A DNA stretch of 64,000 nucleotides, taken from the NCBI GenBank assembly GCA_963699155.1, contig OY969414.1, positions 1,323,757 through 1,387,756 on the forward strand. The letters run 5' to 3'. The translations under genes and the position numbers were made by a program. Below are positions 2,342 to 24,307 of the stretch, piece after piece. The notes beneath the pieces are model-generated. The model did not search any database. It had not been told where the DNA came from and saw only the letters and a program-made list of their open reading frames with translations. This DNA is from an uncultured Chlamydiales bacterium (lineage in GTDB: Bacteria; Chlamydiota; Chlamydiia; Chlamydiales; JAAKFR01). Numbering within the stretch: the first letter of the stretch is position 1; each line of letters starts with the position of its first letter.

Positions 2342-4270
2342 ATGGCAGCTGCATCCGGCCCATCAATATCACCCTCAAAGTCAGCCCCACCCTCTCTCAT
2401 GTCTTCCACGGAAAGATCACCTTCCAGAGGCATCTATGTTTCATCGGATTTGCCACCGGGCTTTCTTACTCCTGCTCCTTCTGCTGAGGATCTCCCCTCC
2501 ATTCCCGAAAACCATTTGTCTTATAGTGAATTCGATAGAGAATTCAACTTAGATAAGGCCTCAACAGAAATAGATAATCTTAGAACGAAAGAACTGAGCA
2601 CGAAATTTCGCGAAAATGTTCAAGTGGGACTTCATTTGCTTCTGAATGAAGAACCTGAAATCATTAAGAAGTTTGTCCTATTTTGTAAAACATCTAAAGA
2701 ATCTATTGCACATGCGGTTAGAAGCATCTCGAAACGACTCGAAGCGGGTGGAAGAGTTTATTTAGTTGGTGTGGGTTCCAGCGGGCGGGTTGCGATTGAC
2801 ATAGCTGTCCGTATGCGCAATATATGCCCAAATCTCAAATGCTTTGGGATTATCGGTGGAGGAGACAGTGCTTTAATTTATCCCCAAGAAGATTTTGAAG
2901 ATTCTGCCGATGAGGGCACAAAAGTGGCTCGGAACTTAAAATTATGCGAGAACGATGTCATTATTTTGATTTCCGCTAGCGGTACAGCCACATTTAATGT
3001 GGGGTTCGGTCATGAAGCTGCAAATCAAAAAGCAAAAGTTTATTACTTCTTCAATAGTGGAACGGTCCCACCCCGTACCGACAGGCTCTTTAACCGCGAT
3101 ACCAACAAAGTCATCCCCATGTCAATTGATATTGGCCCTCAAGCAATTCCTGGATCGACAAGACTTCAAGGATATACGATTGCGCGGCTCTGTCTCACTC
3201 ATCTTATGCAAAAAACATTAGCCCATCTTAAGAAACTTCCCTTTCAAGAATTATCACCTGAGAATCTATCAACAAGATTAGACAATGTTGTGGAAAAAAT
3301 CAATTCATTGGTGCTTTTGTTATCACGGATTGTCAAGGATGAAAAAGAGATTCTCTCTCATACGCTGTTCGATGAAAGTCCCTCCTTACAAAAAACGGCG
3401 GGTTTCATCACCTGGTTAGGGACAAAAAGCACACTCCGCGAATTGACTGTTGACACTGTGGAAATCCCTCCCACTTTCTGTCTGATACCTCCTCGAAGAT
3501 CGACGGAAGCCACCAAAAAAAGAGCAGAGGTCCACACCTTTTTGGTGGGAACTGCAAATAACCGTGAACCCTGGGAAGTTCTTGTAGGAAGAGATCGTGT
3601 AGAGAGCGAATGGGCAGAGACCTCGCAGTTCAATCTGGCGGCAGATGGAGAAGGGCTTGAAAATTTTTCGACAAGACCTCACGGAAAAGGAAATCTTGTC
3701 ATCGGTGCTGAGTTACTCCATAAAGGGGAAAAAATTTCACCCGCTATGCTCGAGAAACTGAAAGAGGTTAAACAGCTGGGGGGGAAAACGGGCTTGATCG
3801 TGATTACGGAAGATAGGGATCCACCAGAAGTTCTGCAACTCAACGGATTATTGGATCATCTCATCGTGATCGACAGCTTAGAGGATGACCCATTGGGTCT
3901 CACCTTTAGTCAGACCTTGAAATGGGTCTGTAACCTCATCTCGAATGGCTCGATGATCCTGCTGGGTAAAGTGCATGGCAATTATATGGTCGACGTGGAA
4001 CCTTCGAATGGAAAGCTCATTTTCAGAGCTAAACATATCGTCAAATCGATCTGGCAGATGTATAATCCTGGCTTCATCAGTGACGAAGAGGTCTATCGAC
4101 GCGTGGTCATAGTAATCAATAGACAAAGTGAGTTAAAAGAAGAGGGACAAACGACACCCTCTACAGTGAAAATTGTCTTGGCAATGATGCATAGGAAATG
4201 TTCCTTTGAAGAGGCCCTCATTCATCTTAAAAATGTTAAAGAAAATCTCGAAGCGTTGTTTAAAGAATAG
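2342..4270 (+). CDS. Double-SIS-domain GCKR/MurQ-like protein with Ser/Pro-rich N-terminal extension
   Basis: GGRVYLVGVGSSGR, ISASG, GPQAIPGSTRLQG, VDTVEIPPTF and GKVHGNYMVDVEPSNGKLIFRA motifs; 642 aa, about twice MurQ length. Confidence 0.75.
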   Translation: MAAASGPSISPSKSAPPSLMSSTERSPSRGIYVSSDLPPGFLTPAPSAEDLPSIPENHLSYSEFDREFNLDKASTEIDNLRTKELSTKFRENVQVGLHLLLNEEPEIIKKFVLFCKTSKESIAHAVRSISKRLEAGGRVYLVGVGSSGRVAIDIAVRMRNICPNLKCFGIIGGGDSALIYPQEDFEDSADEGTKVARNLKLCENDVIILISASGTATFNVGFGHEAANQKAKVYYFFNSGTVPPRTDRLFNRDTNKVIPMSIDIGPQAIPGSTRLQGYTIARLCLTHLMQKTLAHLKKLPFQELSPENLSTRLDNVVEKINSLVLLLSRIVKDEKEILSHTLFDESPSLQKTAGFITWLGTKSTLRELTVDTVEIPPTFCLIPPRRSTEATKKRAEVHTFLVGTANNREPWEVLVGRDRVESEWAETSQFNLAADGEGLENFSTRPHGKGNLVIGAELLHKGEKISPAMLEKLKEVKQLGGKTGLIVITEDRDPPEVLQLNGLLDHLIVIDSLEDDPLGLTFSQTLKWVCNLISNGSMILLGKVHGNYMVDVEPSNGKLIFRAKHIVKSIWQMYNPGFISDEEVYRRVVIVINRQSELKEEGQTTPSTVKIVLAMMHRKCSFEEALIHLKNVKENLEALFKE

Positions 4271-4341
4271 AAACTTTAGATGAGTTTCCCTTAGGACTAG
4301 AGGTGTGTCGCGCCTCTTTGACGATCGGTCAGGAATTGAAG

Positions 4342-4370
4342 AGCGACCCTCTCCAGAAAGAGGGTACGCT
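4342..4370. terminator. Hairpin between convergent genes (probable terminator)
   Basis: agcg-accctct-ccagaa-agagggt-acgct inverted repeat. Confidence 0.4.
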
Positions 4371-4374
4371 GATC

Positions 4375-5526
4375 TTAAGATGTAGGATCTAACGCGCTTT
4401 GAAAGATGGGGAACAGCCAGTTTTCAATCGCTCCCGTAGCTCTATTTTTCCCCATAAAGTGGAGGGAAATGCTTTTCAACGGGGAGCCGGGGTAAGTTTT
4501 GGCAAAATTATAGAAGGCGCGCAAGACAATTGGTGCAGCTTTCTGAGCAGGAAATTTAAACTCACCGATACTCAGGATGGGAATGGCAAGACTTGTTTTT
4601 CCTCGCTGATGGGCTAAAAGGAGCGCATTCCAGTAGCAGGAGAACATTTTTTTTGCTTTCTCAGGGTCGTCATCTTGAATTGGAGTTTCTCCGTCATTCA
4701 GTTGTCTAGCCCGACCTTTAGGTCCTGCGACCACGATGACATCAATGATCCCATCCAGCTCCTGTAAAGCTCCACTAGGAATGATAGCCGCCGCTCCTTC
4801 AGGATAGTGCCTATTGTATTTAGTTTGTAAGGCTCTATGAGCTGCTGCGTAAGCAGCCCCACCTCGGCCGTGAATGGCTCCATCAATTCCGCCACCACCA
4901 CCTAAGTGAGTATTGGCTGCATTGACGATGACTTGAGCTCCGCTTGCGAAGAGGTCTTCATTGCGGATTGACACATTAAATTCCTGTAAATCAGCTTCTT
5001 GAAATTCTAGCTTGAGTCTTGTCTCGCCCTCCGGAACAGCCTCAATCCGACTCATTTCTGCAAAACTGAGATCTCCTGGGTAGTCCACAAGGGTTTCAAT
5101 TACGGGAATCGATTCGGGAGTGGGTGTAGGTCTTGGTGCAGCCGCAGGAGCAGGACTTCCAGACGGTGGCATAGGTGACGGTCTCGGCGCAGCTGCAGGA
5201 GCAGCTCCTCCAGCTCTTTGTGGCGTCGCAGCTGTTACTATGATGCGTGGAGCCTCCGTTTCAGCTTTGACCTCAGCACCGCCATTTCGTCCGATAAAGC
5301 GGTAGCAGACGAAGGAAACGATGCCTCCTAAGCCTCCACCGAGAGCACCCACGACGGCCGCAAACCAGATCGGCTGATGGAAATAAAAATAGGCTGCTAA
5401 GGCAATTCCCAAACCTATAATGATCGGCAAGATAATTGCTGCAACGAGTGAAACCACCGAAGAGCAGCTTCTCGGTTGGGGAACCTCTTGAGGTGATGAT
5501 GAACTTCCAATAGGTTGATAAGCCAT
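4375..5526 (-). CDS. Macrodomain protein with N-terminal bilobed hydrophobic (Inc-like) anchor and Pro-rich linker
   Basis: VIVNAANTHLGGGGGIDGAIH and SLAIPILSIGEFKFP macrodomain motifs; two TM stretches at aa ~25-78; duplicated APAAAPRP. Confidence 0.85.
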   Translation of the reverse strand: MAYQPIGSSSSPQEVPQPRSCSSVVSLVAAIILPIIIGLGIALAAYFYFHQPIWFAAVVGALGGGLGGIVSFVCYRFIGRNGGAEVKAETEAPRIIVTAATPQRAGGAAPAAAPRPSPMPPSGSPAPAAAPRPTPTPESIPVIETLVDYPGDLSFAEMSRIEAVPEGETRLKLEFQEADLQEFNVSIRNEDLFASGAQVIVNAANTHLGGGGGIDGAIHGRGGAAYAAAHRALQTKYNRHYPEGAAAIIPSGALQELDGIIDVIVVAGPKGRARQLNDGETPIQDDDPEKAKKMFSCYWNALLLAHQRGKTSLAIPILSIGEFKFPAQKAAPIVLRAFYNFAKTYPGSPLKSISLHFMGKNRATGAIENWLFPIFQSALDPTS

Positions 5527-5570
5527 AGATACTCCTAAAATTAAATTAAAAAAATTATAGCATTTTTCTA

Positions 5571-6410
5571 TTAATTCTCTATTAAGACTCTCTCTTCCTT
5601 TGTTAAATCGATCCCTTCAGCAGCTACGTTCTCCTCTAAGTGTTCGATCGATGAGGTACCTGGGATGGGCACCATATTAGGAGAGTGTTTCAGTAACCAG
5701 GCGAGGGCGATCTGAGCCGCTGTTGCCCCCTTACTCTGTGCCATTTTCTTCACATGAGCACCTCCTCTGGCAAGCGTTCCGCTCCCGATAGGGAACCAGG
5801 GGATAAAGGCCCACCCCTTTTTCTCACAATATTTGAGCACTTCTTCGGAATCGCGGAAGGAGAGGTTATATTCGTTTTGAATCGAAACAGGAGAAACGAC
5901 TTTTTCAGCCCGAGCGGCTTCTTTGGCAGAGACATTGGAGAGGCCAATATAGCGGATTTTCCCCTGCTCTTGCATCGACTTGAGGGCTCCCAAAGAATCC
6001 TCCAAAGGCACTTGTGGATCGACCGCATGGAGCTGATAGAGATCGATACATTCCAGTCGCAGCCTTCTCAAGCTCATCTCGACACACTGAATCAGATATT
6101 CAGGTCTTCCCAAGGGAACCCAACTCTCAGGTCTAGGACGCAAAAGGCCGCCCTTCGTTGCGATCACAACCCCTTTTGGGTAGGGATAGAGGGCTTCAGC
6201 GAGGAGATTCTCCGAAATTTCAGGTCCATAAGAGTCGGCCGTGTCGATAAAATTGATCCCGAGCTCTACAGCATGGCGGATCACTTTCTTGGCATGCTCA
6301 CGATCTTTCGGCTCCCCCCAAACGTTAGGGCCAACAACGCGCATTGCGCCGAAACCCAGTCTGTTAATAGAGAGTTTTCCCCCCAGCATAAATGTATCTG
6401 TTTTCATCAA
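5571..6410 (-). CDS. Aldo/keto reductase
   Basis: RLGFGAM, FIDTADSYG, IATKGG, IDLYQLH, IGLSNV and PIPGT motifs. Confidence 0.95.
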   Translation of the reverse strand: MMKTDTFMLGGKLSINRLGFGAMRVVGPNVWGEPKDREHAKKVIRHAVELGINFIDTADSYGPEISENLLAEALYPYPKGVVIATKGGLLRPRPESWVPLGRPEYLIQCVEMSLRRLRLECIDLYQLHAVDPQVPLEDSLGALKSMQEQGKIRYIGLSNVSAKEAARAEKVVSPVSIQNEYNLSFRDSEEVLKYCEKKGWAFIPWFPIGSGTLARGGAHVKKMAQSKGATAAQIALAWLLKHSPNMVPIPGTSSIEHLEENVAAEGIDLTKEERVLIEN

Positions 6411-6459
6411 TCACCTCTTTCTCAAAAATGTCACAGCACTATATCATGAGCTCACTTTT

Positions 6460-7518
6460 ATGTGGATTCGCCTCCTTTTTCTCTCTCTCATTTCCTGTGC
6501 ACTGTTTGGTGCTGAAGAGGTCTATCTCAAAACTCCGAGCTTTGCCCGCAGTGACGTTCTGGGCACATCGGTGGGCATCCGTCCCTATCGAAAAACAGGT
6601 GTGCGCCTTGAAGCTGAATGTTTTCCGAACAAACTTATCATCCACAACTATGGCTACGGCGGTTCGGGGATGACCCTGGCCTTCGGAGGTTCGCGTGAGG
6701 TAGTGGAAATTCTCACGGCTCAGGGAATCTCTTCAGGTACTATTGCCGTTCTAGGGGGAGGGGTCATCGGGCTAGCAACCGCTTACGATCTTCTCGAAAA
6801 GGGCTTTAAGGTGCATCTCTATGCCGATCAGTGGAGCCCCAACCTCACCTCAGATATCGCTGCAGGCTCATGGACGCCGCTCGTTCACCCTCAAGATTTG
6901 CCTCCTGAAAAGCTAGCCTTCCATCAAAAACTGATGGAAGTGGCCCGAGAAAGACTCCAAAACAACAGTGCCGAATTCAAAGGAGTCAGACTTTTAACGG
7001 GATACTTTCTCTATCCCCTTGAAGAGTCGATCGATCTCAATCAGCCAGGAAACCTTATCGTCCATTTTGACAACGGTGCAACTCGAAAAGCTACTCGTAT
7101 TCAACGCATCAGCCTCGATGGCCCGCTCTTTATGAAAGATCTCTTTGAAAAGGTCCAAGCCAAAGGGGCTATCCTCCACCGGCTCCATTTCCACCATCTC
7201 GAGGAGATCCTGGCTCTACCAGAAACGGTAGTTATCAACTGTTTGAGCCTGGGCTCTCGCGAACTCTTCAACGATCATGAGCTCTATCCTGTCCGTGGAC
7301 AGATTGTCCATCTCGCCCTTCATGATATCGACTACATCCTCTATCAAAAAGTTCCTGTGCCCAACTACTTCTTCTTTACCTATCCCTGGAGCGACCGCCT
7401 CCTTCTCGGGACCGTCTATGAATTCGGCGAGGAAGAGCCCATCAATACCCCAGAGGTCATCGATCAGCTCCTTTACCAAGCTGAAAAGTGCCTCAACGCA
7501 ACTTCAGAATGCCTTTGA
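6460..7518 (+). CDS. FAD-dependent D-amino-acid-oxidase-like protein with signal peptide and permuted motif order
   Basis: Start MWIRLL at 6460; GIRPYR and HNYGYGGSG lie before the Rossmann GGGVIG; TSDIAAG, VINCLSLG and PVRGQ motifs. Confidence 0.8.
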   Translation: MWIRLLFLSLISCALFGAEEVYLKTPSFARSDVLGTSVGIRPYRKTGVRLEAECFPNKLIIHNYGYGGSGMTLAFGGSREVVEILTAQGISSGTIAVLGGGVIGLATAYDLLEKGFKVHLYADQWSPNLTSDIAAGSWTPLVHPQDLPPEKLAFHQKLMEVARERLQNNSAEFKGVRLLTGYFLYPLEESIDLNQPGNLIVHFDNGATRKATRIQRISLDGPLFMKDLFEKVQAKGAILHRLHFHHLEEILALPETVVINCLSLGSRELFNDHELYPVRGQIVHLALHDIDYILYQKVPVPNYFFFTYPWSDRLLLGTVYEFGEEEPINTPEVIDQLLYQAEKCLNATSECL

Positions 7519-8827
7519 CATATTCTTGGTTTGATGGAGATAGGAGCCCAATTTTGCGCAGACTCTCATCCTTGGCCATCAAGCCCATCGGAAACATTCC
7601 CTTAATGTCACCAGCAGCCACCTGTTGTAAATCTAGGTTTGCGTCAGCCAAAAGTTGATCAGGAATAATCCGCAGCTGACTGGAGTTCATTTTGGATAGC
7701 AGCCGATTGAGAGCGTTTACAGGGAATCCTTCAAAAAGGCGGCGACTTTCAAGAGCTCCCCTAAACCCGGTTGGAAAGAGCACTTTAACTTGGGATTGAG
7801 TGAATAGATTAAAATCCAGATCACTTTCTCTAGAACGAATGAGGGTCCAAAGAAGCCTTCCGTCGAGTAAAAAGAGTACTTTCCTTAGGTTAACCTCCGG
7901 CAAATAGTTAAGCACACGAGAGGAGTGAATAGTAAAACCCATCGTTGCGCTCGAATAGGGGAAAAGTGCTGTGACAATTTGTTCAGATAACCTGTCGTGT
8001 TGTTCTATGAAAAACTGCACCTGCGAAAGGCTGAAAAAAGGATAGAATGCTGGGGAACAGGTCAAAACCTCATCTCTATAGTGAAGAAAATGGCCTAAAG
8101 TATGATCAACCCAAGTGTCACTCGCTTGATGGTCCATGAGACGAATAGAGATCATATCCCGCTCTTCAATTGTAAACTGTTCAATCTGTTCTAGAGACAA
8201 ATGCTCCAATTCTGCCTGCGTCATGGCGAGTAGTTTTAAGACTTTAGTGAGGAGAGTCTCATCACGAACATCATTCAAATAATCCATCCGAAGCCAAACT
8301 GCCGACAAGGAATCTGGAAGATTCTCTTTAAGCCTACCTGAAAGAGTGGGGATGCCCATCTCAGCGGCTATTTTTTGTTGGAGAGCTTGATCCTCCGGAT
8401 TTGAGGAATTCAAAAAAGAATCCAATAAAGAAAATTGCTCTTTTTTTTTGGTGCGCTGCCCATCTGCTCCCGTTATTTCGCTTTCAAAAGCCCCCACATG
8501 TCCCATTATTTCCCTGTCAAAAGCTCTATAAGCAGCAAATGGGCGGTTTCCCCTTACACATCGCAGCGCCGCGCCACCGATCAGGAGTAAGCTACCACCG
8601 CAAATGAATGCAATCCCCCCATTTCTTCCCAAACCCTCTAGGACCGGAATTTTACTGATGGCCAGTGCACCTAGTACACAGAAGATCACCCCTAAAGCCA
8701 CCATCAGAATACGAACCTTCAGGGAGCAGCTTCTCTGGCTCTCTTCATAACGAGCGCAACAGGGAAGAGAAAAGTCAATAGCACCAATAGACAAAAGAAC
8801 CTTTTTATTTTTACGAAATTTTAACAT
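7493..8827 (-). CDS. Hypothetical Inc-like membrane protein with degenerate C-terminal repeats (start uncertain)
   Basis: Bilobed hydrophobic segment at aa ~38-90; three LFP/MFP...S.R repeats about 60 aa apart. Confidence 0.55.
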   Translation of the reverse strand: MLKFRKNKKVLLSIGAIDFSLPCCARYEESQRSCSLKVRILMVALGVIFCVLGALAISKIPVLEGLGRNGGIAFICGGSLLLIGGAALRCVRGNRPFAAYRAFDREIMGHVGAFESEITGADGQRTKKKEQFSLLDSFLNSSNPEDQALQQKIAAEMGIPTLSGRLKENLPDSLSAVWLRMDYLNDVRDETLLTKVLKLLAMTQAELEHLSLEQIEQFTIEERDMISIRLMDHQASDTWVDHTLGHFLHYRDEVLTCSPAFYPFFSLSQVQFFIEQHDRLSEQIVTALFPYSSATMGFTIHSSRVLNYLPEVNLRKVLFLLDGRLLWTLIRSRESDLDFNLFTQSQVKVLFPTGFRGALESRRLFEGFPVNALNRLLSKMNSSQLRIIPDQLLADANLDLQQVAAGDIKGMFPMGLMAKDESLRKIGLLSPSNQEYVKGILKLR

Positions 8828-8871
8828 ATAATTTTATAGGATTCAATCTAAATTTATGATAAAAATAAATT

Positions 8872-9444
8872 ATGACCAATAACCTTATAGAATTGTTTAA
8901 AGAGCTTAGAAAGAATAATCCGCTAAAGGAGCGCTTTAAAAGAGAACCTAAAGCGGTCTTGAAAGAGTATCACGTCGAAATCAGCGATCCTAGAACCATC
9001 CAAGTGGTTGAGGATACAGCCAATAAGAAACACATTGTGATTCATCACCCCACTGCAAAAGAGGATCTTGAAAAGAGTCCTTTGCCCGAGAATATCAAGC
9101 GCTTCCTCGGTGATCTCATCAGATCACCTCAGATGAAGGCCCAGCTCAAGAAAAATCCCATGGCAGTTTTAAAAAACTATGGCATGGAATTCCCAGAAGA
9201 GACTCAGTTTGACATTCTTGAGGATAGTGAGACGCTCACCTATTGGGTCATTCCCTATCCACAAGAAATTACCGATGCTCAGCTTCAGCAGATCTCTGCT
9301 GGCGGTACTGGTACAGGAATCGCAGGATTCGGTGCAGCTCTCTTAACCGTTGCTAATGCCCCTCTAGGAATTGCAGCCATCGTCTTAACCATGGTTTTTA
9401 GTGATAAAATCGACGCCTTCTACGATAAATTGAAAAAGAAATAA
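8872..9444 (+). CDS. NHLP-leader (nitrile hydratase-like) peptide precursor with tandem leader domains
   Basis: Two copies of the P.AVLK.Y......I..VED.....VI pattern, then EITDAQLQQISAGG and a 45-aa hydrophobic core. Confidence 0.75.
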   Translation: MTNNLIELFKELRKNNPLKERFKREPKAVLKEYHVEISDPRTIQVVEDTANKKHIVIHHPTAKEDLEKSPLPENIKRFLGDLIRSPQMKAQLKKNPMAVLKNYGMEFPEETQFDILEDSETLTYWVIPYPQEITDAQLQQISAGGTGTGIAGFGAALLTVANAPLGIAAIVLTMVFSDKIDAFYDKLKKK

Positions 9445-9474
9445 GAGCGAATTCTATATGATGAAACAAGAGCA

Positions 9475-10569
9475 CTAAGTTTGTTTAAGAACGAGGGAAT
9501 AACTTGTGCTGCGTCCCCCTTCCTGATTTTTTGTGAGAATTCCTTTATCGATAAGGTCGAGAATGTCTCGATAGGCAGTATCTTGAGAACATTTAGCCAT
9601 CTTCGCCCATTTGGATGTCGTGAGCTTTCCCTCAAAACCTTCTAGAAGGCGGTTAATGATAATGTGTTGCCTTTCATTTAGAGAAATTTCAGCCAATGAC
9701 TCCCAATAATGGGCTTTGTGAATAATGGCACCCAGAGTGGAATGGGCGTGCGCAATCGCTCTATTCAGGCAGGCAAAAAACCACTCGATCCATGGCCCGA
9801 TATCCAAATCCCTTTTTTGAGTTTGCTCTAAAATAGAACAATATTTTTTTCTTTCTTGCTGGATCTGTGCGGAAAGACTGTAGAAAAGGCGTGAACTTTT
9901 TTCTGATCGCGCCAACATCAAATCGGCAATGGCCCTTCCAATACGGCCATTTCCATCTTCAAAAGGATGAATCGTTACAAACCAGAGGTGCGCTACAGCA
10001 GCTTTCAAGACATAATCTAGCTGTGAGTCATTAAACCAAGTTAAAAAAAGCTCCATCTCACGTTTGACTCGATTTGCAGGAGGTCCTTCAAAATGAAGAG
10101 TTTCTCTTCCCATCTGACCCGAAATGACCTGAACTGCTCCTTCACGCCATCTTCCGGTCTTGATTTTTGACCACCCACTCCGACCATTAGGGAAAAGATC
10201 AGAATGCCAACGAAACAATCTCTCTTGAGTGAGCGGTTCATTAAATTTCTGAGTGGCGTCCACCATCATTTCAACAACTCCATCTATCGTGCGATCTCTG
10301 GGATTAAGCGCACCCTCTTCCATGCCCAGGTGGCGTGCTACTGAAGAGCGAACGAGTGATTGATCAAGTATCTCCCCCTCAATTTCGCTTGATTTGATAA
10401 CCTCTAGAGTCAAATTCCTCAAAACAGTCTCATCCTGAGCATGGAATCCTATAGACTCCATGGCTCCAATCAAACGGCCCTGTTCATGACGCAACTGATG
10501 GAGCAACTGGTTGATTCTATCTGAATCCCACACAAAATGGGGCCAACTCTCAAGCTCATAGATGTACAT
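9475..10569 (-). CDS. Fic family protein (DUF4172-Fic-wHTH type)
   Basis: MYIY...WP.F.W start; HPFEDGNGRIGR; C-terminal KWAKMAKCSQDTAYRDI HTH. Confidence 0.92.
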   Translation of the reverse strand: MYIYELESWPHFVWDSDRINQLLHQLRHEQGRLIGAMESIGFHAQDETVLRNLTLEVIKSSEIEGEILDQSLVRSSVARHLGMEEGALNPRDRTIDGVVEMMVDATQKFNEPLTQERLFRWHSDLFPNGRSGWSKIKTGRWREGAVQVISGQMGRETLHFEGPPANRVKREMELFLTWFNDSQLDYVLKAAVAHLWFVTIHPFEDGNGRIGRAIADLMLARSEKSSRLFYSLSAQIQQERKKYCSILEQTQKRDLDIGPWIEWFFACLNRAIAHAHSTLGAIIHKAHYWESLAEISLNERQHIIINRLLEGFEGKLTTSKWAKMAKCSQDTAYRDILDLIDKGILTKNQEGGRSTSYSLVLKQT

Positions 10570-10587
10570 GAGCCTATTCTATCATAT

Positions 10588-10652
10588 ATTCTCCGCATAA
10601 GCAACCTTATTCTCCGCAAAAATGCGGAGAATAGGCCCATTTTTTCTCCGCA
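10588..10652. promoter_or_regulatory. Operator-like TTCTCCGCA repeat cluster upstream of the Fic gene
   Basis: Copies at about 10589, 10610 and 10644, plus an inverted copy at 10623; palindrome tattctccgca-aaaa-tgcggagaata at 10608-10633. Confidence 0.55.
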
Positions 10653-10750
10653 CTTTTTAAATTCTGCAAAAAAGCATGACTTATACTGCCACCGAGAACA
10701 TTGGACACGGATTTGCGATATACTTAATCGCAAAACCAAGGAGATCCAAC

Positions 10751-11062
10751 ATGGAAGAAGGTGGTCAAATCAAACGATGGACCGCGGCACGTAAGATTGA
10801 AGTTGTCTTACGTCTATTAAAAGGAGAGTCCATCGATAAACTAAGTCGAGAACTCGGTGTAGAGGCTTATTTAATCGAAGAATGGCATTCAAAAGCAATT
10901 CAGGGCATGGAAGTGGGATTAAAAATGCGTTCCGAAGACCCTGTTCAACATGAATTAGACCATGCTAAGAAACGCCTGGGAGAGCTCATGATGGAAAACG
11001 AGCTCTTGCAGATAAAGGCCAACAAAGCACCGGGTTTTCGTATGGGGAGGTCCAAGAAATGA
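10751..11062 (+). CDS. IS3-like transposase OrfA (HTH)
   Basis: RWTAARKIEVVLRLLKGESIDKLSRELGV HTH; coiled coil ...LGELMMENELL; AAGGAG RBS; ATGA overlap with orfB. Confidence 0.85.
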   Translation: MEEGGQIKRWTAARKIEVVLRLLKGESIDKLSRELGVEAYLIEEWHSKAIQGMEVGLKMRSEDPVQHELDHAKKRLGELMMENELLQIKANKAPGFRMGRSKK

Positions 11063-11907
11063 GCGAGAAGATCTCTCCTTCAACCCATCTTAAATATGGT
11101 GTAGAATTAGTTTGTACAGTGTGGAAGTTTCCTCGCTCATCTTTCTATCATAATAGAAAGCGGCCATATAAACCTAAGGGGCTTCGAGGAAAAAAGCCGA
11201 CCCTCTCAGACAATGATCTATTGGAGGCCATCAAAAAAGACATATCCGAAAGCCACTTTCAAGGAGAAGGACATCGAAAAATACATGCTCGATTAAAACG
11301 CTTCAAGAAACTAAATATTGGGCGGAATCGAGTTTTGAAGCTAATGAGAGAGCATAAAATGCTCTCTCCGTATCGCGTTGAACAGGGAAAAGAACGCCTA
11401 CATGATGGACGCATTACAACAGACCGCCCCAATGAAATGTGGGGTACAGATGCCGCTAAGATTTTCACCCTCGAAGATGGGTGGGTGTGGTTTTTCGGAG
11501 TAATTGAACATTGGAATGCTGAATGTCTAGGGTGGCATGTCACAAAGAAAGGAAGTCGATTTGCTGCAATAGAAGCCTTAAATAAGGCTGTTGAGGTTGT
11601 TTTTTGATTAACGACAACTATTTTTCCCTTCAACGACAATTTTAATCCTTAGCGTAACGACAATTAAAATTCCTCCTTAACGACAATTATTTTTCCCTTC
11701 ACTGCAGTTCCATCTTCATAACGGTCATTTTTTTTGCTCTTGAGGGAAAAGTTAAACGACGCCTCTTCCACTCCTTATGTTGAAAAATACTTTCTTCTCC
11801 CATCATAAGCACTTTCTCTCTCTGGGGGATAAATCCCCCAGCCCCCCAATCTTTCATGGGGCTCTGCCCCAAACCCCGGCAAAGGAGCTTGCTCCTTTGC
11901 AAACCAC

Positions 11908-12660
11908 TTATTTTTCTTCTTTCCTCGCTTTCGATTTCTCGAGTCGGTAACTTGTTAAGTTTAACTCAAGTATTACACTGTGATGCACTAGACGATCTAT
12001 AGCCGCCGCAGCCATCATAGCATCTTTAAAAATCCCTTCCCATTTCGAAAAGGGCAAATTACTGGTCAGCAAAATACTTGTGCTTTCATAGCACCATGTA
12101 AACAGGGTAAAGAGCACTTCCATCTCTTCCTTTTCCTGCTGCACATAGCCAATCTCATCAATAACAAGCAGATCGTAGCTTGTCAGCTTTTTCATCAATC
12201 TGTTCAGCTTCAGTTCCTGTTTCGCAATAAGCAAATCTTGTAACAGTGCTGAACACGAACTGAAGCACGCCTTGTACCCCTTACCTATCATCTCCTGGGC
12301 CAAACCACACATCAAGTGCGTTTTCCCAGCACCAGGTGTCCCAAATAATAACAAATTCTCTTTTCTTTCTAGAAATTTGCCATCACGTAAGGCATTGAAC
12401 TGATGCTGAGCTCCCTTCGGTAATCTGCTCAAATCAAAATTTGCAAGCGATTTAGAAATGGGCAGATTTGACTCTTTCAACCATCTCTCGATGCGTTTAT
12501 TCTCTCTGGATTCAACCTCTTGCCTTACAAGCTCCAACAAGTACTCTTCATAGCCCCATTCTTCTTTTCTTGCCTTCTCAGCATACTCAAAAAAGCTTTT
12601 ACTCATTTTTGGAAGTAACAGCCTTTTTAAACCTTCTGAAACCTGCTCTATTGTATTCAT
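11908..12660 (-). CDS. istB: IS21 helper ATPase
   Basis: GTPGAGKT, LLVIDEIGY, LTSNLPFSKW and AAAAIDRLVHHS motifs. Confidence 0.95.
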   Translation of the reverse strand: MNTIEQVSEGLKRLLLPKMSKSFFEYAEKARKEEWGYEEYLLELVRQEVESRENKRIERWLKESNLPISKSLANFDLSRLPKGAQHQFNALRDGKFLERKENLLLFGTPGAGKTHLMCGLAQEMIGKGYKACFSSCSALLQDLLIAKQELKLNRLMKKLTSYDLLVIDEIGYVQQEKEEMEVLFTLFTWCYESTSILLTSNLPFSKWEGIFKDAMMAAAAIDRLVHHSVILELNLTSYRLEKSKARKEEK

Positions 12661-14129
12661 GATTGTGACTCCTTTAACAAAGCTAAATCATAAACACATA
12701 AATCCACTGTAGAGACAGCTACATCCATTAAAGAAAATATTTTTTCTGGTTTTCGAAGTATCTGTAAAACGCTTTCAAGAGTTATCATTTGATCTTTAAC
12801 AAGCAGACTTTTCAAAACCCCTCCTACACGTCTCTCACCATCTTGTGCAGCTGCTTTCAAAATACCTAGATAATCCTTCACATAGCGTTGAGGCGATCCA
12901 ATTTTTAAAGCATCGTAGGCTGCCCTAAAAGTACTTGTAGGGTATAACTCTTCCTTATAGCGATAATTCTCAAATGCTCCAGGCTTCTTTATCAACCAAT
13001 CTATTATATGACGATAATCAATCTGGGCCTTGTGGGCCCCAACCATGCGCGGAAACTCCTCCACTTTTTGACCTTGGTACCAGATCTCTACAATACTTCC
13101 TAAAAGATGTATCTCTACCTCTTCGTTAATCAAACGACTCGGTACAGAATAAGTGTTATCTTTTAAACGGATTGTACTTCCTCTACCTACAGTTAATCTA
13201 TGAACAGTGGCATCTTGGAGTCTTCCTGGAGGCAATTCTTTGAGCTTTTCTTGTTCTTCTTTAAAACGAACACTTCTTGCCGCATTACGCTTTATCACCA
13301 GATCTCTCAGAAAACCACGATATTCCTCAACGGTTTCAAAATCATGACTACCACGTAACATTAGTGCCTGCTCAACAGCCCTCTTAAGCCTATGGTGAGC
13401 CTGTTCAACATCGCCATTCTCATTCGGGCAACCAGCTTGTATTTTTGTCCCTGTAATACCATAGTGATCCAAAAGAGCCTGGTACCGTGCACCAAATTTA
13501 GGATTATTCGAGAAATTTGACATTGCTGCCGTCAAACGATCTGTGCGATGTCGTAAGGCAGAGCCCCCTGCTTGCCAGACTGCATTTTGAAACCCCTCAC
13601 TTAGACTTTCAAAATTCTCGGAAAAACAAATAGTTACACTCTCCCAATTCGAGTAGGTAAAAACAAAGTGATAAACAAGATGAGGAAATGGGCTCCTTTG
13701 GATTGTAATCTTAAGATTTTCCATATGTGTAAAATCTGAAGAGCAAAGATCCCCAGGCTTATGGATTTGTGCAAAGAATACCTCCTTAGGTGGTCCTTGG
13801 AGTCCTTTCCATTTCTTGACCTTTCTTTGCAAGGTCCGCAATTGCCCTTCTTGAAATTTGCCCGGATATTTCTCTACTAAATACTCAAAAATTGTCTTTG
13901 CTTCGAGTCGTGGTTGAAGCTCTAGCATGCTTTCAATTTCGGAATTAACGCAATCGAACGGATCCGTTCTTGTTTTCCAATTATGATCTGTTGGCAACAG
14001 CGGGTTATCATTCTTTAAGTAAGTTCTTGCTGTCTTAGGATCTATGCCAGCTTTGGCAGCTGAATCTTTAAGATTATTTCCCTCATTAATCATTTTACAC
14101 AATCTCCTATACTGTGTTTTAGAAATCAT
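12657..14129 (-). CDS. istA: IS21 transposase
   Basis: N-terminal HTH; SDFT, TDRL and NENGDVE DDE residues; YSVP motif; overlaps istB. Confidence 0.93.
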   Translation of the reverse strand: MISKTQYRRLCKMINEGNNLKDSAAKAGIDPKTARTYLKNDNPLLPTDHNWKTRTDPFDCVNSEIESMLELQPRLEAKTIFEYLVEKYPGKFQEGQLRTLQRKVKKWKGLQGPPKEVFFAQIHKPGDLCSSDFTHMENLKITIQRSPFPHLVYHFVFTYSNWESVTICFSENFESLSEGFQNAVWQAGGSALRHRTDRLTAAMSNFSNNPKFGARYQALLDHYGITGTKIQAGCPNENGDVEQAHHRLKRAVEQALMLRGSHDFETVEEYRGFLRDLVIKRNAARSVRFKEEQEKLKELPPGRLQDATVHRLTVGRGSTIRLKDNTYSVPSRLINEEVEIHLLGSIVEIWYQGQKVEEFPRMVGAHKAQIDYRHIIDWLIKKPGAFENYRYKEELYPTSTFRAAYDALKIGSPQRYVKDYLGILKAAAQDGERRVGGVLKSLLVKDQMITLESVLQILRKPEKIFSLMDVAVSTVDLCVYDLALLKESQS

Positions 14130-14954
14130 CCTTTACCTCCTTACGAGATAAAGGATTATCTTCTTAAGTCTCAGCGAAGGGAATTTTAATTGTCGTCCGA
14201 AGGGAAAAATAATTGTCGTCGGACAGGAATTTTAATTGTCGCTGAAGCGGAGATTTAATTGTCGCAGATCAGTTTTTAGCAAAACATCCTCTAATGTGGC
14301 TCGTGGGGTCAGTTTACGAGTAGATCATGGCTCTCAATTTATGTCAGAAGGCTTTATTAACCAAACACGGTACTGGGGCATAAGTATAAGCAAGGGCTTT
14401 GTGAAGGAGCCTGAAACCAACGGGGTGATAGAAAGGTTTCACAGAACATTTAAGGAGCAGATTGTACACGGTAGGCATTATCATGGCCTAGAAGACTTTA
14501 GGAAGGCTGTAGCAGAGTTCATTAAGTCGTACAATGAACACTGGCTTTTAGAAAAGCTAGATTATCACTCCCCTCTGGAAGCCAGGGAGTTATATTCCAA
14601 AGAACACCCTTCTGAACAAATTTTATCGGCGTTAGCTGAGGTTGGAGAGGGAGCACGGCTACTTTGTTCTGGCAAGGATATGATAGCAAAAACTGAGAAT
14701 TTTAGAATAATTTTAAAGCGACGGAAGAAATTTACGCAAATTTGTGTCCAAAGAAATGGTGGCGATACAAAAAAAGCATGACTTTAATTGACAACCCAAA
14801 ACTCAGGTTGATAGTGAGAATGTGGCAAAAGTGAGGGGAATTTACGGCGTTTGTCTTCTAATGGCACGCACTTCTTGGCATAAACCTAGTATATGCCTTG
14901 TTAGTTAGTCCTTAGCAAGGGGGTAACATTTTGGCCAAATGGGTAATTTTGATC

Positions 14955-15025: not shown

Positions 15026-16135
15026 TTAAATTTCCCTTTTCTTTTTAACTCTTTTTGTTTTGGGACTTGGGATTGCGCTTAGCTCTGCTTCAATCTCACC
15101 AATTGTTGGAAGTTGTCCTTCTAGCTTTTTAGGTAGGGTTGAAACGATTTTTGTCTCATATTCGGCTACCCCCATGGGCTTATGAATATCTCGAAGTGCA
15201 TATTCTGCAATGAAGTTATCTTTACTTTTGCAAATCAAAATACCAATGGTTGGGTTATCCGTAGGATGCTTCATGAGATCATCAACAGCGGACAAATAAA
15301 AGTTCATCTTACCTGCAAATTCAGGCTTAAAATCAACCGCTTTGAGTTCAATCACAACAAAACATCTAAGCTTCAAATGATAAAATAGCAGGTCGATATA
15401 GAAGTCTTTGTTACCTACTACTAAATTGACTTGCCTGCCAACAAATGAAAAACCCTGACCTAATTCAGATAGAAATTTCTCAACATGCTTGAGCAATCCT
15501 TCTTCTAGATCTTTTTCAATGTGCTCTCTAGCCAGCTCAAGAAAGTCAAAGTTATAAGGATCTTTTAGAGTATCATGAGCTAATTGTGAATGGGGATCGG
15601 GAAGTCTATCTTGAAAATTGGTAATCGCTTTGCCATGTCTTTTATAAGTTTTTATTTTAATAGAATCCACTAGAGCGTTGCGAGACCATCCCTCCTGAAT
15701 AACCATATTGACATACCAAAGCCGCTCATCAAAAGACTTAACCCCTTCAAATATAGCTATATTATGCCCCCATGGGATGTTGAAAATAGGTAGACCTTCT
15801 AATTTACCCACAGCTTGTGGGGAAATTGAATATGCCAGGTAAAATGCCCTCATCCTACCCATGTTTGTTCTAGAAAACCCTTCAATTCCTGGAAATTCGT
15901 TCTGAATATCCCTTGCTATTCTATCTATTACACTAGAACCCCAACCGTCTTTTTCTTGTCTTTCGACGATTTCTTTGCCTATATCCCAATACAAGCGAAT
16001 AAGTTCCCTATTCACTGCTAATGCGGCTTTGAATTGAGCAGATCGTATTTTTTTCTTAAGCTGTGTCACAAACTTGGCATAGTCTGTGGAAGCAACATCT
16101 TTCTTCTTGGAATCGTTTTGTTTACTTTTTGCCAT
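15026..16135 (-). CDS. DUF1016/YhcG-family PD-(D/E)XK nuclease-like protein
   Basis: LYWDIG, GWGSSVI, PWGHN, KDPYNFDFL, DLLFYH, VVIELK and GKMNFY motifs; start MAKSK chosen at 16135. Confidence 0.92.
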   Translation of the reverse strand: MAKSKQNDSKKKDVASTDYAKFVTQLKKKIRSAQFKAALAVNRELIRLYWDIGKEIVERQEKDGWGSSVIDRIARDIQNEFPGIEGFSRTNMGRMRAFYLAYSISPQAVGKLEGLPIFNIPWGHNIAIFEGVKSFDERLWYVNMVIQEGWSRNALVDSIKIKTYKRHGKAITNFQDRLPDPHSQLAHDTLKDPYNFDFLELAREHIEKDLEEGLLKHVEKFLSELGQGFSFVGRQVNLVVGNKDFYIDLLFYHLKLRCFVVIELKAVDFKPEFAGKMNFYLSAVDDLMKHPTDNPTIGILICKSKDNFIAEYALRDIHKPMGVAEYETKIVSTLPKKLEGQLPTIGEIEAELSAIPSPKTKRVKKKREI

Positions 16136-16352
16136 TTCAATTCTTTTTTCATTGCCTAGCACAGTTCGTGACACTAATTCTCTATGTGTCACACCTGTCA
16201 CAGAAATCACAATAGATTAACACCTGCGATAGAAAAATCAAAATAGATTTACGCCAGGTTTATCTCGTCTAGTGCGTAAAATTTGCGTAATTGAGCTTTA
16301 CGCAGTGGAATTTTTGGGTGCGAAATTTTTGTTGTATGTCACTAAAAACGAA

Positions 16353-16378
16353 AGGCTTCACTTATAAAAGTGAAGCCT
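16353..16378 (-). terminator. Terminator hairpin downstream of tmRNA
   Basis: aggcttcactt-ataa-aagtgaagcct followed by a U-rich tract on the minus strand. Confidence 0.65.
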
Positions 16379-16388
16379 CTTTGTGTGA

Positions 16389-16840
16389 TGGAGGTGGGGA
16401 GACTCGAACTCCCGTCCTTGGCAAACGCCCCAACAGACACTACATGCTTAGTGTCCAATCTTAGCGCCAGCTTCTTAGTTGAACACCCCTATGAAGCTGA
16501 CCGGTTTCATTTGATCTCGGGGACTTTAGCCTAGAAACCTTCGGCTAAAGCCCCACACCAAGAATACTGACAGTAATCCCGAAACCCTCGGTCCAGTCGC
16601 AGGTTACCGGGTCACCGAGGCGGTTAAGCCTCAGTAACAGCTAGCACTAAGCTGCTGCTGCCATTGCAACAGGCGCTTCTGCCCCAACATATGCGAGATA
16701 TGCTGTGGGCATTGCTTCAACTTTCGTGCTTTTTGCCGTAGTTTTGGCATTTATTGTTTTATCGGCTTTTTAAGGAGGCCAACCGAATACCTCCGCATGC
16801 ATCTGGTGCTTTGTTCCCAAGTCGAAACCAATACACCCCC
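16389..16840 (-). ncRNA. ssrA: tmRNA
   Basis: 5' GGGGGTGTATTGGTTTCGAC; 3' GGGAGTTCGAGTCTCCCCACCTCCA; G3-U70 pair; tag ORF 16748-16647 ending AAAA*; CCA not encoded. Confidence 0.95.
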
Positions 16841-23701: not shown

Positions 23702-24307
23702 TTATGAACCCTTGTCGATCCAGTTATAGACAGTTTTTGCAGCGGCATCGATTCCAGTTGGGTTTGTATACATTAAACTGAGTCCCTTAAGAACACCCAA
23801 GGCAGCTCCACCCGCCAATGCTCTGCCAAATTGCGCCCAATTTACATTATCTAATAGTCCTAAATTAAGACCTCCCGCAACTCGTTGAATCTCTTCTTCT
23901 GAGAGTTCTTCAGTAGCAAGAGGGGGCAGTACAAGATATTGTCTTTCTGCCGTTTCTTCAAAAACTTCCACTGACCAATCATTGGGTAGTGGTGCTCCAC
24001 ATTCTTCTTTTAAAACTTTTTTTGGATCAGCAAATAGTCTTTTTTTAAGCTCTGGGTCTTGTAATGCTTTCAGAGTGATTTGCAAAAGAGGCTTCTTTGG
24101 ATTTTCTTTGGCAAACTGTTCAATCTGTTCTCGCTGTTTGATATCAGGAATGACAAGATAGATTTTTTTTGGTTCGGGTTCGATGACAATCAACTTCAAT
24201 TGATCCTCAAACTTCAACCCAAGCTCTTTACTAAGAACGCCCTTTGGGTCCTTTTTGACTCTTTCTCTGAAATTTCTATCGATCAAAAAAGAAGAGATGT
24301 TACCCAT
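23702..24307 (-). CDS. NHLP-leader peptide precursor with tandem leader domains
   Basis: D.NFRERVKKDPKGVL...YLVIP, then KALQDPELKKRLFADPKKVL...VFEETAERQYLVLPP...EELSEEEIQRVAGG and a 55-aa core. Confidence 0.85.
   Translation of the reverse strand: MGNISSFLIDRNFRERVKKDPKGVLSKELGLKFEDQLKLIVIEPEPKKIYLVIPDIKQREQIEQFAKENPKKPLLQITLKALQDPELKKRLFADPKKVLKEECGAPLPNDWSVEVFEETAERQYLVLPPLATEELSEEEIQRVAGGLNLGLLDNVNWAQFGRALAGGAALGVLKGLSLMYTNPTGIDAAAKTVYNWIDKGS

Follow-up and report, generated by a model that had tools for sequence, protein, structure and literature searches.

The prochlorosins combine many ProcA precursors with a single ProcM and are a familiar instance of a peptide library. The RiPP precursors of the NHLP leader peptide family are closer to the locus analysed here. 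According to Haft et al. (PMC2887384), classical NHLPs correspond to the nitrile hydratase (NHase) α chain minus 63 residues, and the part of the leader preceding the cleavage site is captured by a 13-residue motif 2, ELSDEQLDAVAGG. The same source describes fused NHLP-Burk pairs (TIGR03795) in Delftia and Acidovorax, in which two complete precursors are joined in one polypeptide and motif 2 is absent.

Here we analyse a gene from a 64,000-nucleotide stretch (the window) of the genome of an uncultured Chlamydiales bacterium. A preliminary description, made from the DNA sequence, had seen in it a tandem-NHLP precursor with an unrelated core, one of a library of peptides served by a single promiscuous machinery. 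The gene product belongs to the NHLP family, and an annotation pipeline would so name it, but it is unlike the described family in four ways: the leader has two units, the tail is hydrophobic and free of Cys, no tailoring gene was found, and the host is a chlamydia-like bacterium. The reading that we prefer, at a probability of roughly 0.6, is that cleavage of the leader after Ala143-Gly144 accompanies export and releases an unmodified, membrane-active peptide of 46 residues.

We searched the openly accessible literature and found no paper on NHLP in Chlamydiae or Parachlamydiaceae and none on RiPP or bacteriocin precursors of this kind in Chlamydiae. Within the same scope, which included the accessible portions of PMC12537861 and PMC3140520, no paper describing a two-unit NHLP leader was found.

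The gene and its surroundings

The 190-residue reading frame with two NHLP units was confirmed letter for letter and is identical to G000:C1:1332628-1333200 in the coordinates of the genome. The NCBIfam model TIGR03793 (58.7 bits against a cut-off of 50.9) and the Pfam model NHase_alpha (47.2 bits against a cut-off of 27.2) each match the product in two stretches. The possibility that the protein is itself a nitrile hydratase α chain was rejected: it scores 47.3 bits with TIGR01323, for which the cut-off is 249.85, and the CxxCSC metal motif of nitrile hydratase is missing from the protein, which contains no Cys at all.

Table 1 Features of the precursor gene, its neighbouring paralogue in the window and the two export loci. 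Positions are those of the window unless a genome coordinate (G000:C1) is given.
Feature	Position	Strand	Remarks
NHLP-family precursor gene, two-unit	8872..9444	+	Intact ORF, 190 codons plus stop; TIGR03793 above cut-off
First NHLP/NHase-alpha-like unit, residues 1-72	8872..9087	+	Matches Pfam NHase_alpha positions 113-169, E 1.8e-5 when scanned alone
Second NHLP unit, residues 73-130	9088..9261	+	Best TIGR03793 stretch is residues 88-144
Double-glycine-type recognition stretch, residues 131-144 (QEITDAQLQQISAG)	9262..9303	+	NHLP motif 2 match; L138 and G144 invariant in the eight-sequence alignment
Predicted released peptide, 46 aa, G145-K190	9304..9441	+	Downstream of the predicted cut
Second two-unit member	23702..24307	-	201 aa, ...EEIQRVAGG then a 55-aa tail; TIGR03793 66.8 bits, second unit
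Export locus B	G000:C1 ~2,198.5-2,206.5 kb		ABC1 910.8, ABC2 685.6, HlyD 199 bits; TolC-like protein
Export locus A	G000:C1 ~568.2-573.4 kb		ABC1 903.6, ABC2 770.8, short HlyD 143 bits

The ORFs within about 4 kb of the gene encode an aldo-keto reductase, a DAO-type oxidoreductase, a 444-residue protein with no Pfam match, a DUF4172-Fic protein and the products of IS3 and IS21 genes; an immunity gene could not be recognised among these neighbours. The gene had been called an orphan, which is accurate locally, there being no maturase or exporter within about 4 kb, but not for the genome as a whole, where two NHLP-type exporters are encoded at distant loci. It had also been called AT-rich, which holds only in a mild form: its GC content is 42.9%, compared with a genome mean of 47.5%, and falls at the 15th percentile of 573-bp windows. 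All 17 members of the family described below likewise have a GC content below the genome mean. A scan around the gene returned two promoter-like sites, where 1.9 are expected by chance, and no terminators. When window positions 4000-11000 were compared at the DNA level with three genomes of the same genus, only 334 bases of the reductase gene were recovered, in one of the three.

A scattered family with divergent tails

Searching every one of the 11,156 ORFs of at least 50 codons in the 2.40-Mb single-contig genome, which is rated 100% complete, with a profile identified 17 NHLP members at 14 places. Thirteen are two-unit proteins of 168-201 residues and four are one-unit proteins of 114-133 residues. 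The second copy that had been reported about 14 kb away is a true paralogue, located at 14.3 kb; an alignment of both proteins gives 29% identity (E 2e-13). The earlier picture of a scattered multi-copy family with a common leader and divergent tails is therefore borne out by 17 members whose tails do not align. What it had called a conserved leader scaffold, in contrast, is not highly conserved: mean pairwise identity is about 31-32%, at 30.8% in unit 1 (78 pairs) and 32.4% in unit 2 (136 pairs). Judged from their sequences, the family leaders are old paralogues. In the tree, long branches of 1.5-1.8 substitutions per site separate the target from its paralogues; the nearest paralogue, 1699416, lies at 1.71, and two metagenomic proteins are closer, at 1.47 and 1.64.

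The neighbourhoods of these genes have little in common. For 16 of the 17 members, 107 ORFs fall within about 4 kb, and we scanned the 69 of these that were nearest on each side; the remaining member, the one-unit gene at 565456, was treated separately. The scanned neighbours are unrelated housekeeping or mobile genes, and no neighbour is shared across the 14 loci. None of the 13 two-unit members has a maturase or an exporter within 4 kb, and the sole radical-SAM neighbour of family genes is an MtaB-type tRNA enzyme.

Fold of the two-unit leader

An AlphaFold2 model of the target, built on an 18-sequence alignment (mean pLDDT 74.4, pTM 0.68), contains two confidently predicted units, each consisting of three helices and a β-hairpin, with pLDDT values of 74-96 for the 10-residue blocks from residue 11 to residue 130. 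Unit 1 has its helical part at residues 2-32 and its strands at residues 42-57 (pLDDT about 78-96), and no Gly-Gly site follows it; in unit 2 the corresponding parts are residues 73-102 and 112-127 (pLDDT about 86-95). A short helix is predicted at residues 135-142, and from residue 143 onward confidence collapses to pLDDT values below 50, as for a disordered tail. The two halves are recognisably related to each other, with 28% identity over 53 residues (E 4e-8).

A Foldseek search with this model returned, at E below 0.01, nitrile hydratase α and thiocyanate hydrolase γ chains exclusively (TM 0.46-0.51 over 130-163 columns). The family profile aligns with the nitrile hydratase α chain 1v29_A in one collinear stretch, from profile positions 9-153 to residues 69-203 (E 1.6e-18), which implies that the enzyme itself is made of two such units and that the precursor covers both. 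Against 8tb1_A, a solved one-unit NHLP leader (9cjx is another), only the second unit of the profile aligns (E 1.2e-18). The 63-residue gap of classical NHLPs is absent in the target family, which accordingly does not have the form of a single unit plus a deletion. On these alignments, the two-unit leader is best described as an architectural variant inside the NHLP family.

We considered whether the two-unit leader is an NHase α chain that never underwent the deletion. When both halves of each of 18 two-unit proteins were scanned separately, 15 first halves gave a match, 13 of them to the second repeat of the enzyme, at about positions 113-169, and only two to the first repeat; all 16 matching second halves hit positions 111-175. 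Retention of the enzyme's architecture is thus not shown, given that 13 of 15 first halves resemble its second repeat, and tandem duplication appears at least as likely an origin of the two-unit leader.

Predicted cleavage site and peptide

The end of the leader and the tail of the target read ...EITDAQLQQISAGG then TGTGIAGFG...DKLKKK. The segment E132-G144 (EITDAQLQQISAG) agrees with NHLP motif 2 over its full 13 positions, Ala taking the place of Gly at -2, and I141, L138 and I133 occupy the hydrophobic positions -4, -7 and -12. L138 and G144 are invariant in the eight-sequence alignment of the target subfamily, and the same register is seen in the alignment of the 17 paralogues. The invariance of G144 and the register of motif 2 together predict a cut after Ala143-Gly144. 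Since the site consists of Ala-Gly followed by a further Gly, its register is ambiguous by one residue; the cut is probably after Ala143-Gly144, and one residue later is also possible. The preliminary description had placed a double-glycine-type site at the same spot but began the core at T146, with 45 residues; the peptide predicted here begins at G145 (GTGTG) and has 46.

Across the 17 paralogues, the leader ends in GG in 11 cases, in AG in two, in GA in one, in DG in one and in none of these in two. A GG, AG or GA site is accordingly present in 14 members, and three (with DG, KY and SK) have no usable site. It had been reasoned that the library reading would be refuted if homologues kept the C-terminal segment as a fixed membrane anchor and did not keep the GG/AG site; in this family the site is conserved and the tails are no fixed anchor.

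The target tail starts with a Gly-rich segment, continues as a hydrophobic stretch with a central Pro and ends in polar and cationic residues. It has a GRAVY of 0.69, a best 19-residue hydropathy of 2.05, a net charge of +2, no Cys and 11% Ser plus Thr. Scanned alone, it matches nothing in Pfam or NCBIfam at E up to 10. Matches in the ESM Atlas, which reach scores of 0.80 only and serve as leads, comprise NHLP clusters and one cluster automatically named class IIb bacteriocin.

The tails of the 17 paralogues are hypervariable and yield no alignment. They have no Cys in 14 members and one Cys in three, contain 5-31% Ser plus Thr, and carry a net charge of at least zero in 16. A 19-residue hydropathy peak of at least 1.2 is found in nine of the 13 two-unit members and in none of the four one-unit members. 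Within the target subfamily (four paralogues and three metagenomic proteins), the tails share a weak P-x-x-(F/L)-P-like centre and a polar or basic end. The core is thus unrelated to the others in the sense that tails do not align family-wide, but not within its subfamily, where the central Pro stretch and the polar, cationic end recur.

Export and modification genes

Two complete NHLP-type export loci (TIGR03794/03796/03797) are located 0.76 and 0.87 Mb from the target (Table 1; the model cut-offs are 853.3 bits for ABC1, TIGR03796, 709.4 bits for ABC2, TIGR03797, and 156.2 bits for the HlyD adaptor, TIGR03794). Locus A lies 2.4 kb from a one-unit precursor gene. The best solved match of both C39 domains is the double-glycine protease domain 6mpz (E 1.1e-40 and 2.2e-32). 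At the Cys and His columns of 6mpz, ABC1 of locus B has ECG and NHF, an intact catalytic pair, whereas ABC1 of locus A has ESG and HQY, with Ser and Gln instead of the catalytic Cys and His. The HlyD adaptor of locus A is missing its coiled-coil hairpin, and ABC2 of locus B carries a 310-residue N-terminal extension that belongs to no known family. Because neither exporter adjoins the target, the tie between the target and locus B exists at the level of the genome only.

Co-folding of the C39 domain of locus B with precursor residues 76-190 gave a score of 0.35, with 0.00 for the best control, agreement between runs in at least 72% of contacts and a partner pLDDT of at least 52. The mark that this pair passed is reached by 116 of 157 solved complexes and by two of 215 mismatches, and the passes scored at or below 0.60 comprise only 18 of the 157 complexes and both passing mismatches. 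Like complexes have already been solved, so the pass may reflect their memorisation by the predictor, and we take it as weak support for the pairing of C39 domain and precursor.

Modification enzymes of known families were sought across the same genome, rated complete. YcaO (PF02624) had no match at E up to 1, a LanC-like domain (PF05147) had none at E up to 0.1, and the PoyD-type epimerase model (TIGR04517) had none either, in a search that also matched no control genome. All 11 radical-SAM ORFs match housekeeping enzymes best: MtaB, MiaB, RimO, MqnC, an MqnE-like protein, HemW, HemN, LipA, two RlmN-type proteins and EpmB. The postulated single promiscuous machinery is therefore upheld for cleavage and export, which the two TIGR03794/03796/03797 loci could provide in common, but not for modification, as no YcaO, LanC-like or PoyD-like gene was found. 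The analogies that had been drawn with prochlorosins and PoyA lack support to the extent that they imply modification, given that no known maturase family was found and given tails with at most one Cys and 5-31% Ser plus Thr; with no maturase found and this unsuited tail chemistry, both analogies hold only in the sense of one exporter with many substrates.

Specific classes of modified peptide were rejected for the target on the same grounds: a prochlorosin-type lanthipeptide library (no PF05147 match, no Cys in the core), a TOMM with an NHLP leader (no PF02624 match, 11% Ser plus Thr and no Cys in the core) and a polytheonamide-type proteusin (no TIGR04517 match, as in the controls, and radical-SAM genes that are housekeeping in 11 of 11 cases).

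The product is most likely unmodified, because no recognisable modifying enzyme is encoded in the genome and the tail is free of Cys. The absence of known maturase families is compatible with a maturase of an unrecognised family, and a tail that is epimerised, methylated or hydroxylated as in proteusins by such an enzyme, and then cut and exported in the same way, is an alternative that we regard as unlikely. It draws on the facts that NHLP leaders are best known from modified peptides (PMC2887384; PMC12537861), that a folded NHLP core can be the docking surface of an enzyme, as reported in PMC12537861, that some metagenomic two-unit relatives have modifiable-looking tails, either Cys-rich or with alternating Asn and Val, and that the PoyD search had no positive control. 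Set against these are the missing YcaO and LanC-like genes, the housekeeping character of the 11 radical-SAM enzymes, the lack of a neighbour common to the 14 family loci, the composition of the target tail and the account of Haft et al. (PMC2887384), in which the constant partner of the family is an exporter and not a tailoring enzyme.

Relatives in the phylum and in metagenomes

No orthologue of the target was found in the 40 relatives searched, and a word-indexed homologue search with the target returned only the protein itself. Among indexed sequencing runs, no RNA run is listed for the gene, and one DNA run shares a small fraction (0.17) of its sequence words. The only full-length foreign matches among the 40 relatives are five two-unit genes of one genome (G034), with 26-27% identity. 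These five precursor genes stand side by side at a distance of 3.5 kb from a TolC-HlyD-ABC1 operon and have ...ELQAVSGG sites followed by Ser/Gly-rich, hydrophilic tails.

In a sample of the phylum, 300 genomes were scored for NHLP at E up to 1e-5 and for ABC1 at E up to 1e-180, with one genome left unscored. NHLP matches occur in 36 of them and ABC1 in 49 (36 of the 49 above the cut-off). Co-occurrence with a transporter, put forward earlier as a check, is evident: an exporter gene is present in 28 of the 36 NHLP genomes and in 21 of the 264 genomes without NHLP, counts in which kin genomes are not independent. Eight genomes have NHLP without ABC1. Of the 28 genomes with both, 20 have a precursor no more than 10 kb away from ABC1; in the same-genus genome G002, all eight NHLP matches are remote from the exporter.

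When 1.84 billion representative proteins were searched with a profile, 8284 matched at an E-value threshold of 1e-3 and 2609, possibly with one-unit proteins among them, at a threshold of 1e-10. Among the best 149 hits besides the target, a set that includes proteins of its own genome and of G034, 134 span both units in one stretch and the remaining 15 either give two separate matches or begin within unit 1. A loose form of the site pattern occurs in 133 of these 149, in a few at an earlier position, and their tails vary from hydrophobic to Arg-, His- or Cys-rich. Of ten clusters checked, three are named, one as "NHLP leader peptide family RiPP precursor" and two as "hypothetical protein". 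These profile matches show the two-unit form of NHLP precursor to be common in metagenomes. With P0015, the closest foreign relative, as the query, no locus was found among the genome contigs searched.

The relatives also bear on a second alternative, in which the protein is not processed and its two NHase-alpha-like units are held on one membrane face by a C-terminal hydrophobic helix with a basic end. The hydropathy peak of 2.05 and the KKK end of the target would suit such a tail anchor, as would the comparably hydrophobic tails of nine of the 13 two-unit paralogues, the several paralogues whose tails close with an aromatic residue and then a polar or basic stretch, and the lack of an exporter adjoining the target. 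We nevertheless hold this alternative to be quite improbable: 14 of the 17 members retain the double-glycine motif exactly in register with the NHLP motif, hydrophilic tails that are unfit as anchors occur in all four one-unit members and in the five two-unit members of G034, the tails are unalignable across the family, and the family co-occurs with a C39 exporter.

Model and implications

On the preferred reading of a precursor made in the cytoplasm, then cut and exported without modification, residues 1-130, the two folded NHase-alpha-like units, would act as a soluble carrier and leader that keeps the hydrophobic cargo in solution, and would present residues 131-144 as an amphipathic recognition stretch. 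The C39 domain of an NHLP-type ABC exporter, likely that of locus B, would bind this stretch and cut after Ala143-Gly144, and the ABC1/ABC2-HlyD-TolC assembly would pump out the 46-mer. The exported peptide is probably unmodified, would resemble a class II bacteriocin and would act on a membrane, and the target would be one of about 17 cargoes of a common exporter. Family membership, the conserved site, the set of paralogues, the exporters with their catalytic residues and the absence of known maturases are direct observations on this genome, from which we infer cleavage, export, lack of modification, membrane activity and the target of the peptide.

That the gene is instead a decaying, functionless paralogue left by duplication or transfer beside mobile DNA is very unlikely: although IS3, IS21 and Fic genes adjoin it, its GC content is under the genome mean, no orthologue was found in 40 relatives, promoter- and terminator-like sites do not exceed chance and some paralogues have lost the site, the frame is open over 190 codons with its motif residues intact, both units fold in the AlphaFold2 model with pLDDT values of about 90, the family scores exceed curated cut-offs, and frame and motifs have been kept despite branches of 1.5-1.8 substitutions per site.

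A broader conjecture, which we offer as doubtful, is that two-unit NHLP precursors constitute an undescribed and widespread class of folded, soluble carriers of unmodified cargo, with a chlamydial arsenal of about 13 hydrophobic peptides. Under this conjecture, the NHase-alpha-like double-repeat body may descend from that of the enzyme or have been rebuilt through duplication, a type I-like exporter would release the peptides into the vacuole or host of a presumably intracellular bacterium, and the peptides would act on membranes of the host, of an organelle or of rival symbionts. Each leader unit might dock one half of the ABC1/ABC2 heterodimer. If true, this would amount to a secreted repertoire of membrane-active peptides of a kind not known for the phylum.

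For the study of RiPPs and bacteriocins, the data point to a large unnamed NHLP sub-class with a two-domain leader, as all of the best 149 hits match twice or across the units. For the origin of NHLPs from nitrile hydratase, a two-unit form that is collinear with the enzyme could tell if a deletion gave rise to the classical leader. For chlamydial biology, the locus suggests that environmental members of the phylum use a type I-like route to export families of small hydrophobic peptides. The cleavage predicted to yield the 46-mer is directly testable.

Comparison with known systems

Prochlorosins resemble the present family in having many long-leader precursors with divergent cores at scattered loci and a common machinery. 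They differ from it in that no LanM or LanC-like enzyme was found in the target genome, the target core has no Cys, the leader is of the NHLP and not the Nif11 type, and the leader of the target family is only about 31% conserved among paralogues. The proteusins, represented by PoyA with PoyD (TIGR04517), share with the target an NHLP-type leader and a long hydrophobic core rich in Gly, Ala and Val, and the preliminary description had pointed to a putative likeness to PoyA in the residues around the cleavage site. They differ in that searches of the target genome revealed neither a PoyD-like gene nor any other radical-SAM gene outside the housekeeping types.

The likeness to double-glycine class II-type bacteriocins and their PCATs (6mpz, 4ry2, 8hf4) is of another sort. 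It includes a leader that closes in a Gly-Gly-type site and is hydrophobic at -4, -7 and -12, a C39-ABC exporter in which Cys and His are present, a weakly cationic, hydrophobic, Gly/Ala-rich peptide of 30-55 residues and the lack of modification genes. Unlike the 15-30 disordered residues of those leaders, however, the target leader is a folded two-domain structure of 144 residues. In addition, the target has no recognisable immunity gene, its tail matches no bacteriocin family, its host is a chlamydia-like bacterium and its exporter is of the two-ABC NHLP type.

With nitrile hydratase α and thiocyanate hydrolase γ chains, the target shares a profile collinear with 1v29_A and a predicted fold that superposes at TM 0.46-0.51; it differs from these enzymes in lacking CxxCSC, in place of which it has a Gly-Gly-type site and a tail. 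The fused NHLP-Burk pairs, as outlined in PMC2887384, likewise have two NHase-related units per polypeptide, but in the target only the second unit carries a cleavage motif and a tail, and TIGR03795 has no match to the target at E up to 1.

The closest correspondence is with the NHLP RiPP precursors themselves (TIGR03793). As portrayed by Haft et al. (PMC2887384), these have in common with the target an above-cut-off leader, a Gly-Gly-type end conforming to motif 2, a hypervariable tail, many paralogues per genome, some of them remote from the machinery, and a TIGR03794/03796/03797 exporter in the genome. The target departs from them in its leader, which has two units and about 144 residues compared with one unit and about 83-87 residues in that account. 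It departs from them further in its hydrophobic, Cys-free tail, which is not rich in heterocyclisable residues, in the absence of any tailoring enzyme that we could find and in its chlamydia-like host.

Genomic surroundings of the target gene and its paralogues

The DNA directly downstream of the target gene (window 9475-14132) is mobile or accessory. The divergent 444-aa ORF on its other side gave no match in a Pfam search, and carries two hydrophobic segments side by side near its N-terminus, an arrangement that may resemble that of chlamydial inclusion-membrane proteins. Elsewhere in the genome, the 820-aa protein encoded beside a one-unit paralogue combines leucine-rich repeats with an NEL (novel E3 ligase) domain at its C-terminus and looks like an effector.

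The GC content of the NHLP-family genes ranges from 36.8 to 46.1%, below the genome mean of 47.5% in 17 of 17 cases; either their Lys/Glu/Asn-rich leaders or a foreign origin could account for this.

Features surrounding NHLP-family genes and exporter loci (G000, genome containing the window; G034, a relative; L-numbers, loci cut from genomes)
Feature	Position	Strand	Remark
444-aa ORF	window 7493-8827	-	divergent from target, 44-bp gap
DUF4172-Fic gene	window 9475-10569	-	
IS3-like ORFs	window 10676-11607	+	
IS21 istB and transposase	window 11908-14132	-	
Exporter locus A	L039:10184-15395 = G000:C1 about 568.2-573.4 kb	-	NHLP exporter, score above cut-off
820-aa protein	L061:2571-5030 = G000:C1:1040570-1043032	+	directly upstream of one-unit NHLP gene at 1043189
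4288-aa ORF	G000:C1:1623224-1636090	-	3 kb from family member at 1619836
Class D beta-lactamase-like ORF	L040:4072-4842 = G000:C1 about 2,197.1-2,197.8 kb	-	just upstream of exporter locus B
Five two-unit NHLP genes in a row and convergent GNAT acetyltransferase gene	G034:C46, L057:12654-15973; 15975-16589	+; -	NHLP genes adjoin TolC-HlyD-ABC1 operon

Exporter loci

Sequence comparison of the C39 domains showed that the catalytic Cys and His present in the solved double-glycine protease domain 6mpz and in exporter locus B are replaced by Ser and Gln in locus A. The HlyD adaptor of locus A (281 aa) keeps its membrane anchor and is missing the coiled-coil hairpin of roughly 150 residues. Locus A may be a non-cleaving or decaying variant. 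The beta-lactamase-like ORF beside locus B scored 202 bits against NF012161, under the cut-off of 250. Genes for IS481 and IS4 transposases lie just downstream of locus B.

Distribution of one- and two-unit forms

Of the genus's four genomes, G000 is the only one in which the two-unit form was seen. All eight NHLP matches in the sister genome G002 are one-unit (ORFs of 92-113 aa), and they are scattered, at least 200 kb from its single exporter gene; since the matches are scattered in this genome as well, dispersal of NHLP genes is a trait of the genus. The five two-unit proteins of G034 have tails rich in Ser, Gly and Thr, and the last gene of the row faces a convergent gene for an acetyltransferase of the GNAT type (PF13302, E 4e-12), which could have a role in tailoring or immunity.

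Tails of metagenomic relatives

Several metagenomic NHLP proteins, with two or in some cases three units, have strikingly unlike tails: Arg/Trp-rich (P0012, P0018, P0146), His-rich (P0021, P0049, P0053, P0068), containing a prepilin-like hydrophobic segment (P0039, P0048, P0123) or with stretches of alternating Asn and Val (P0084, P0105). These Asn/Val-alternating stretches look like proteusin cores.
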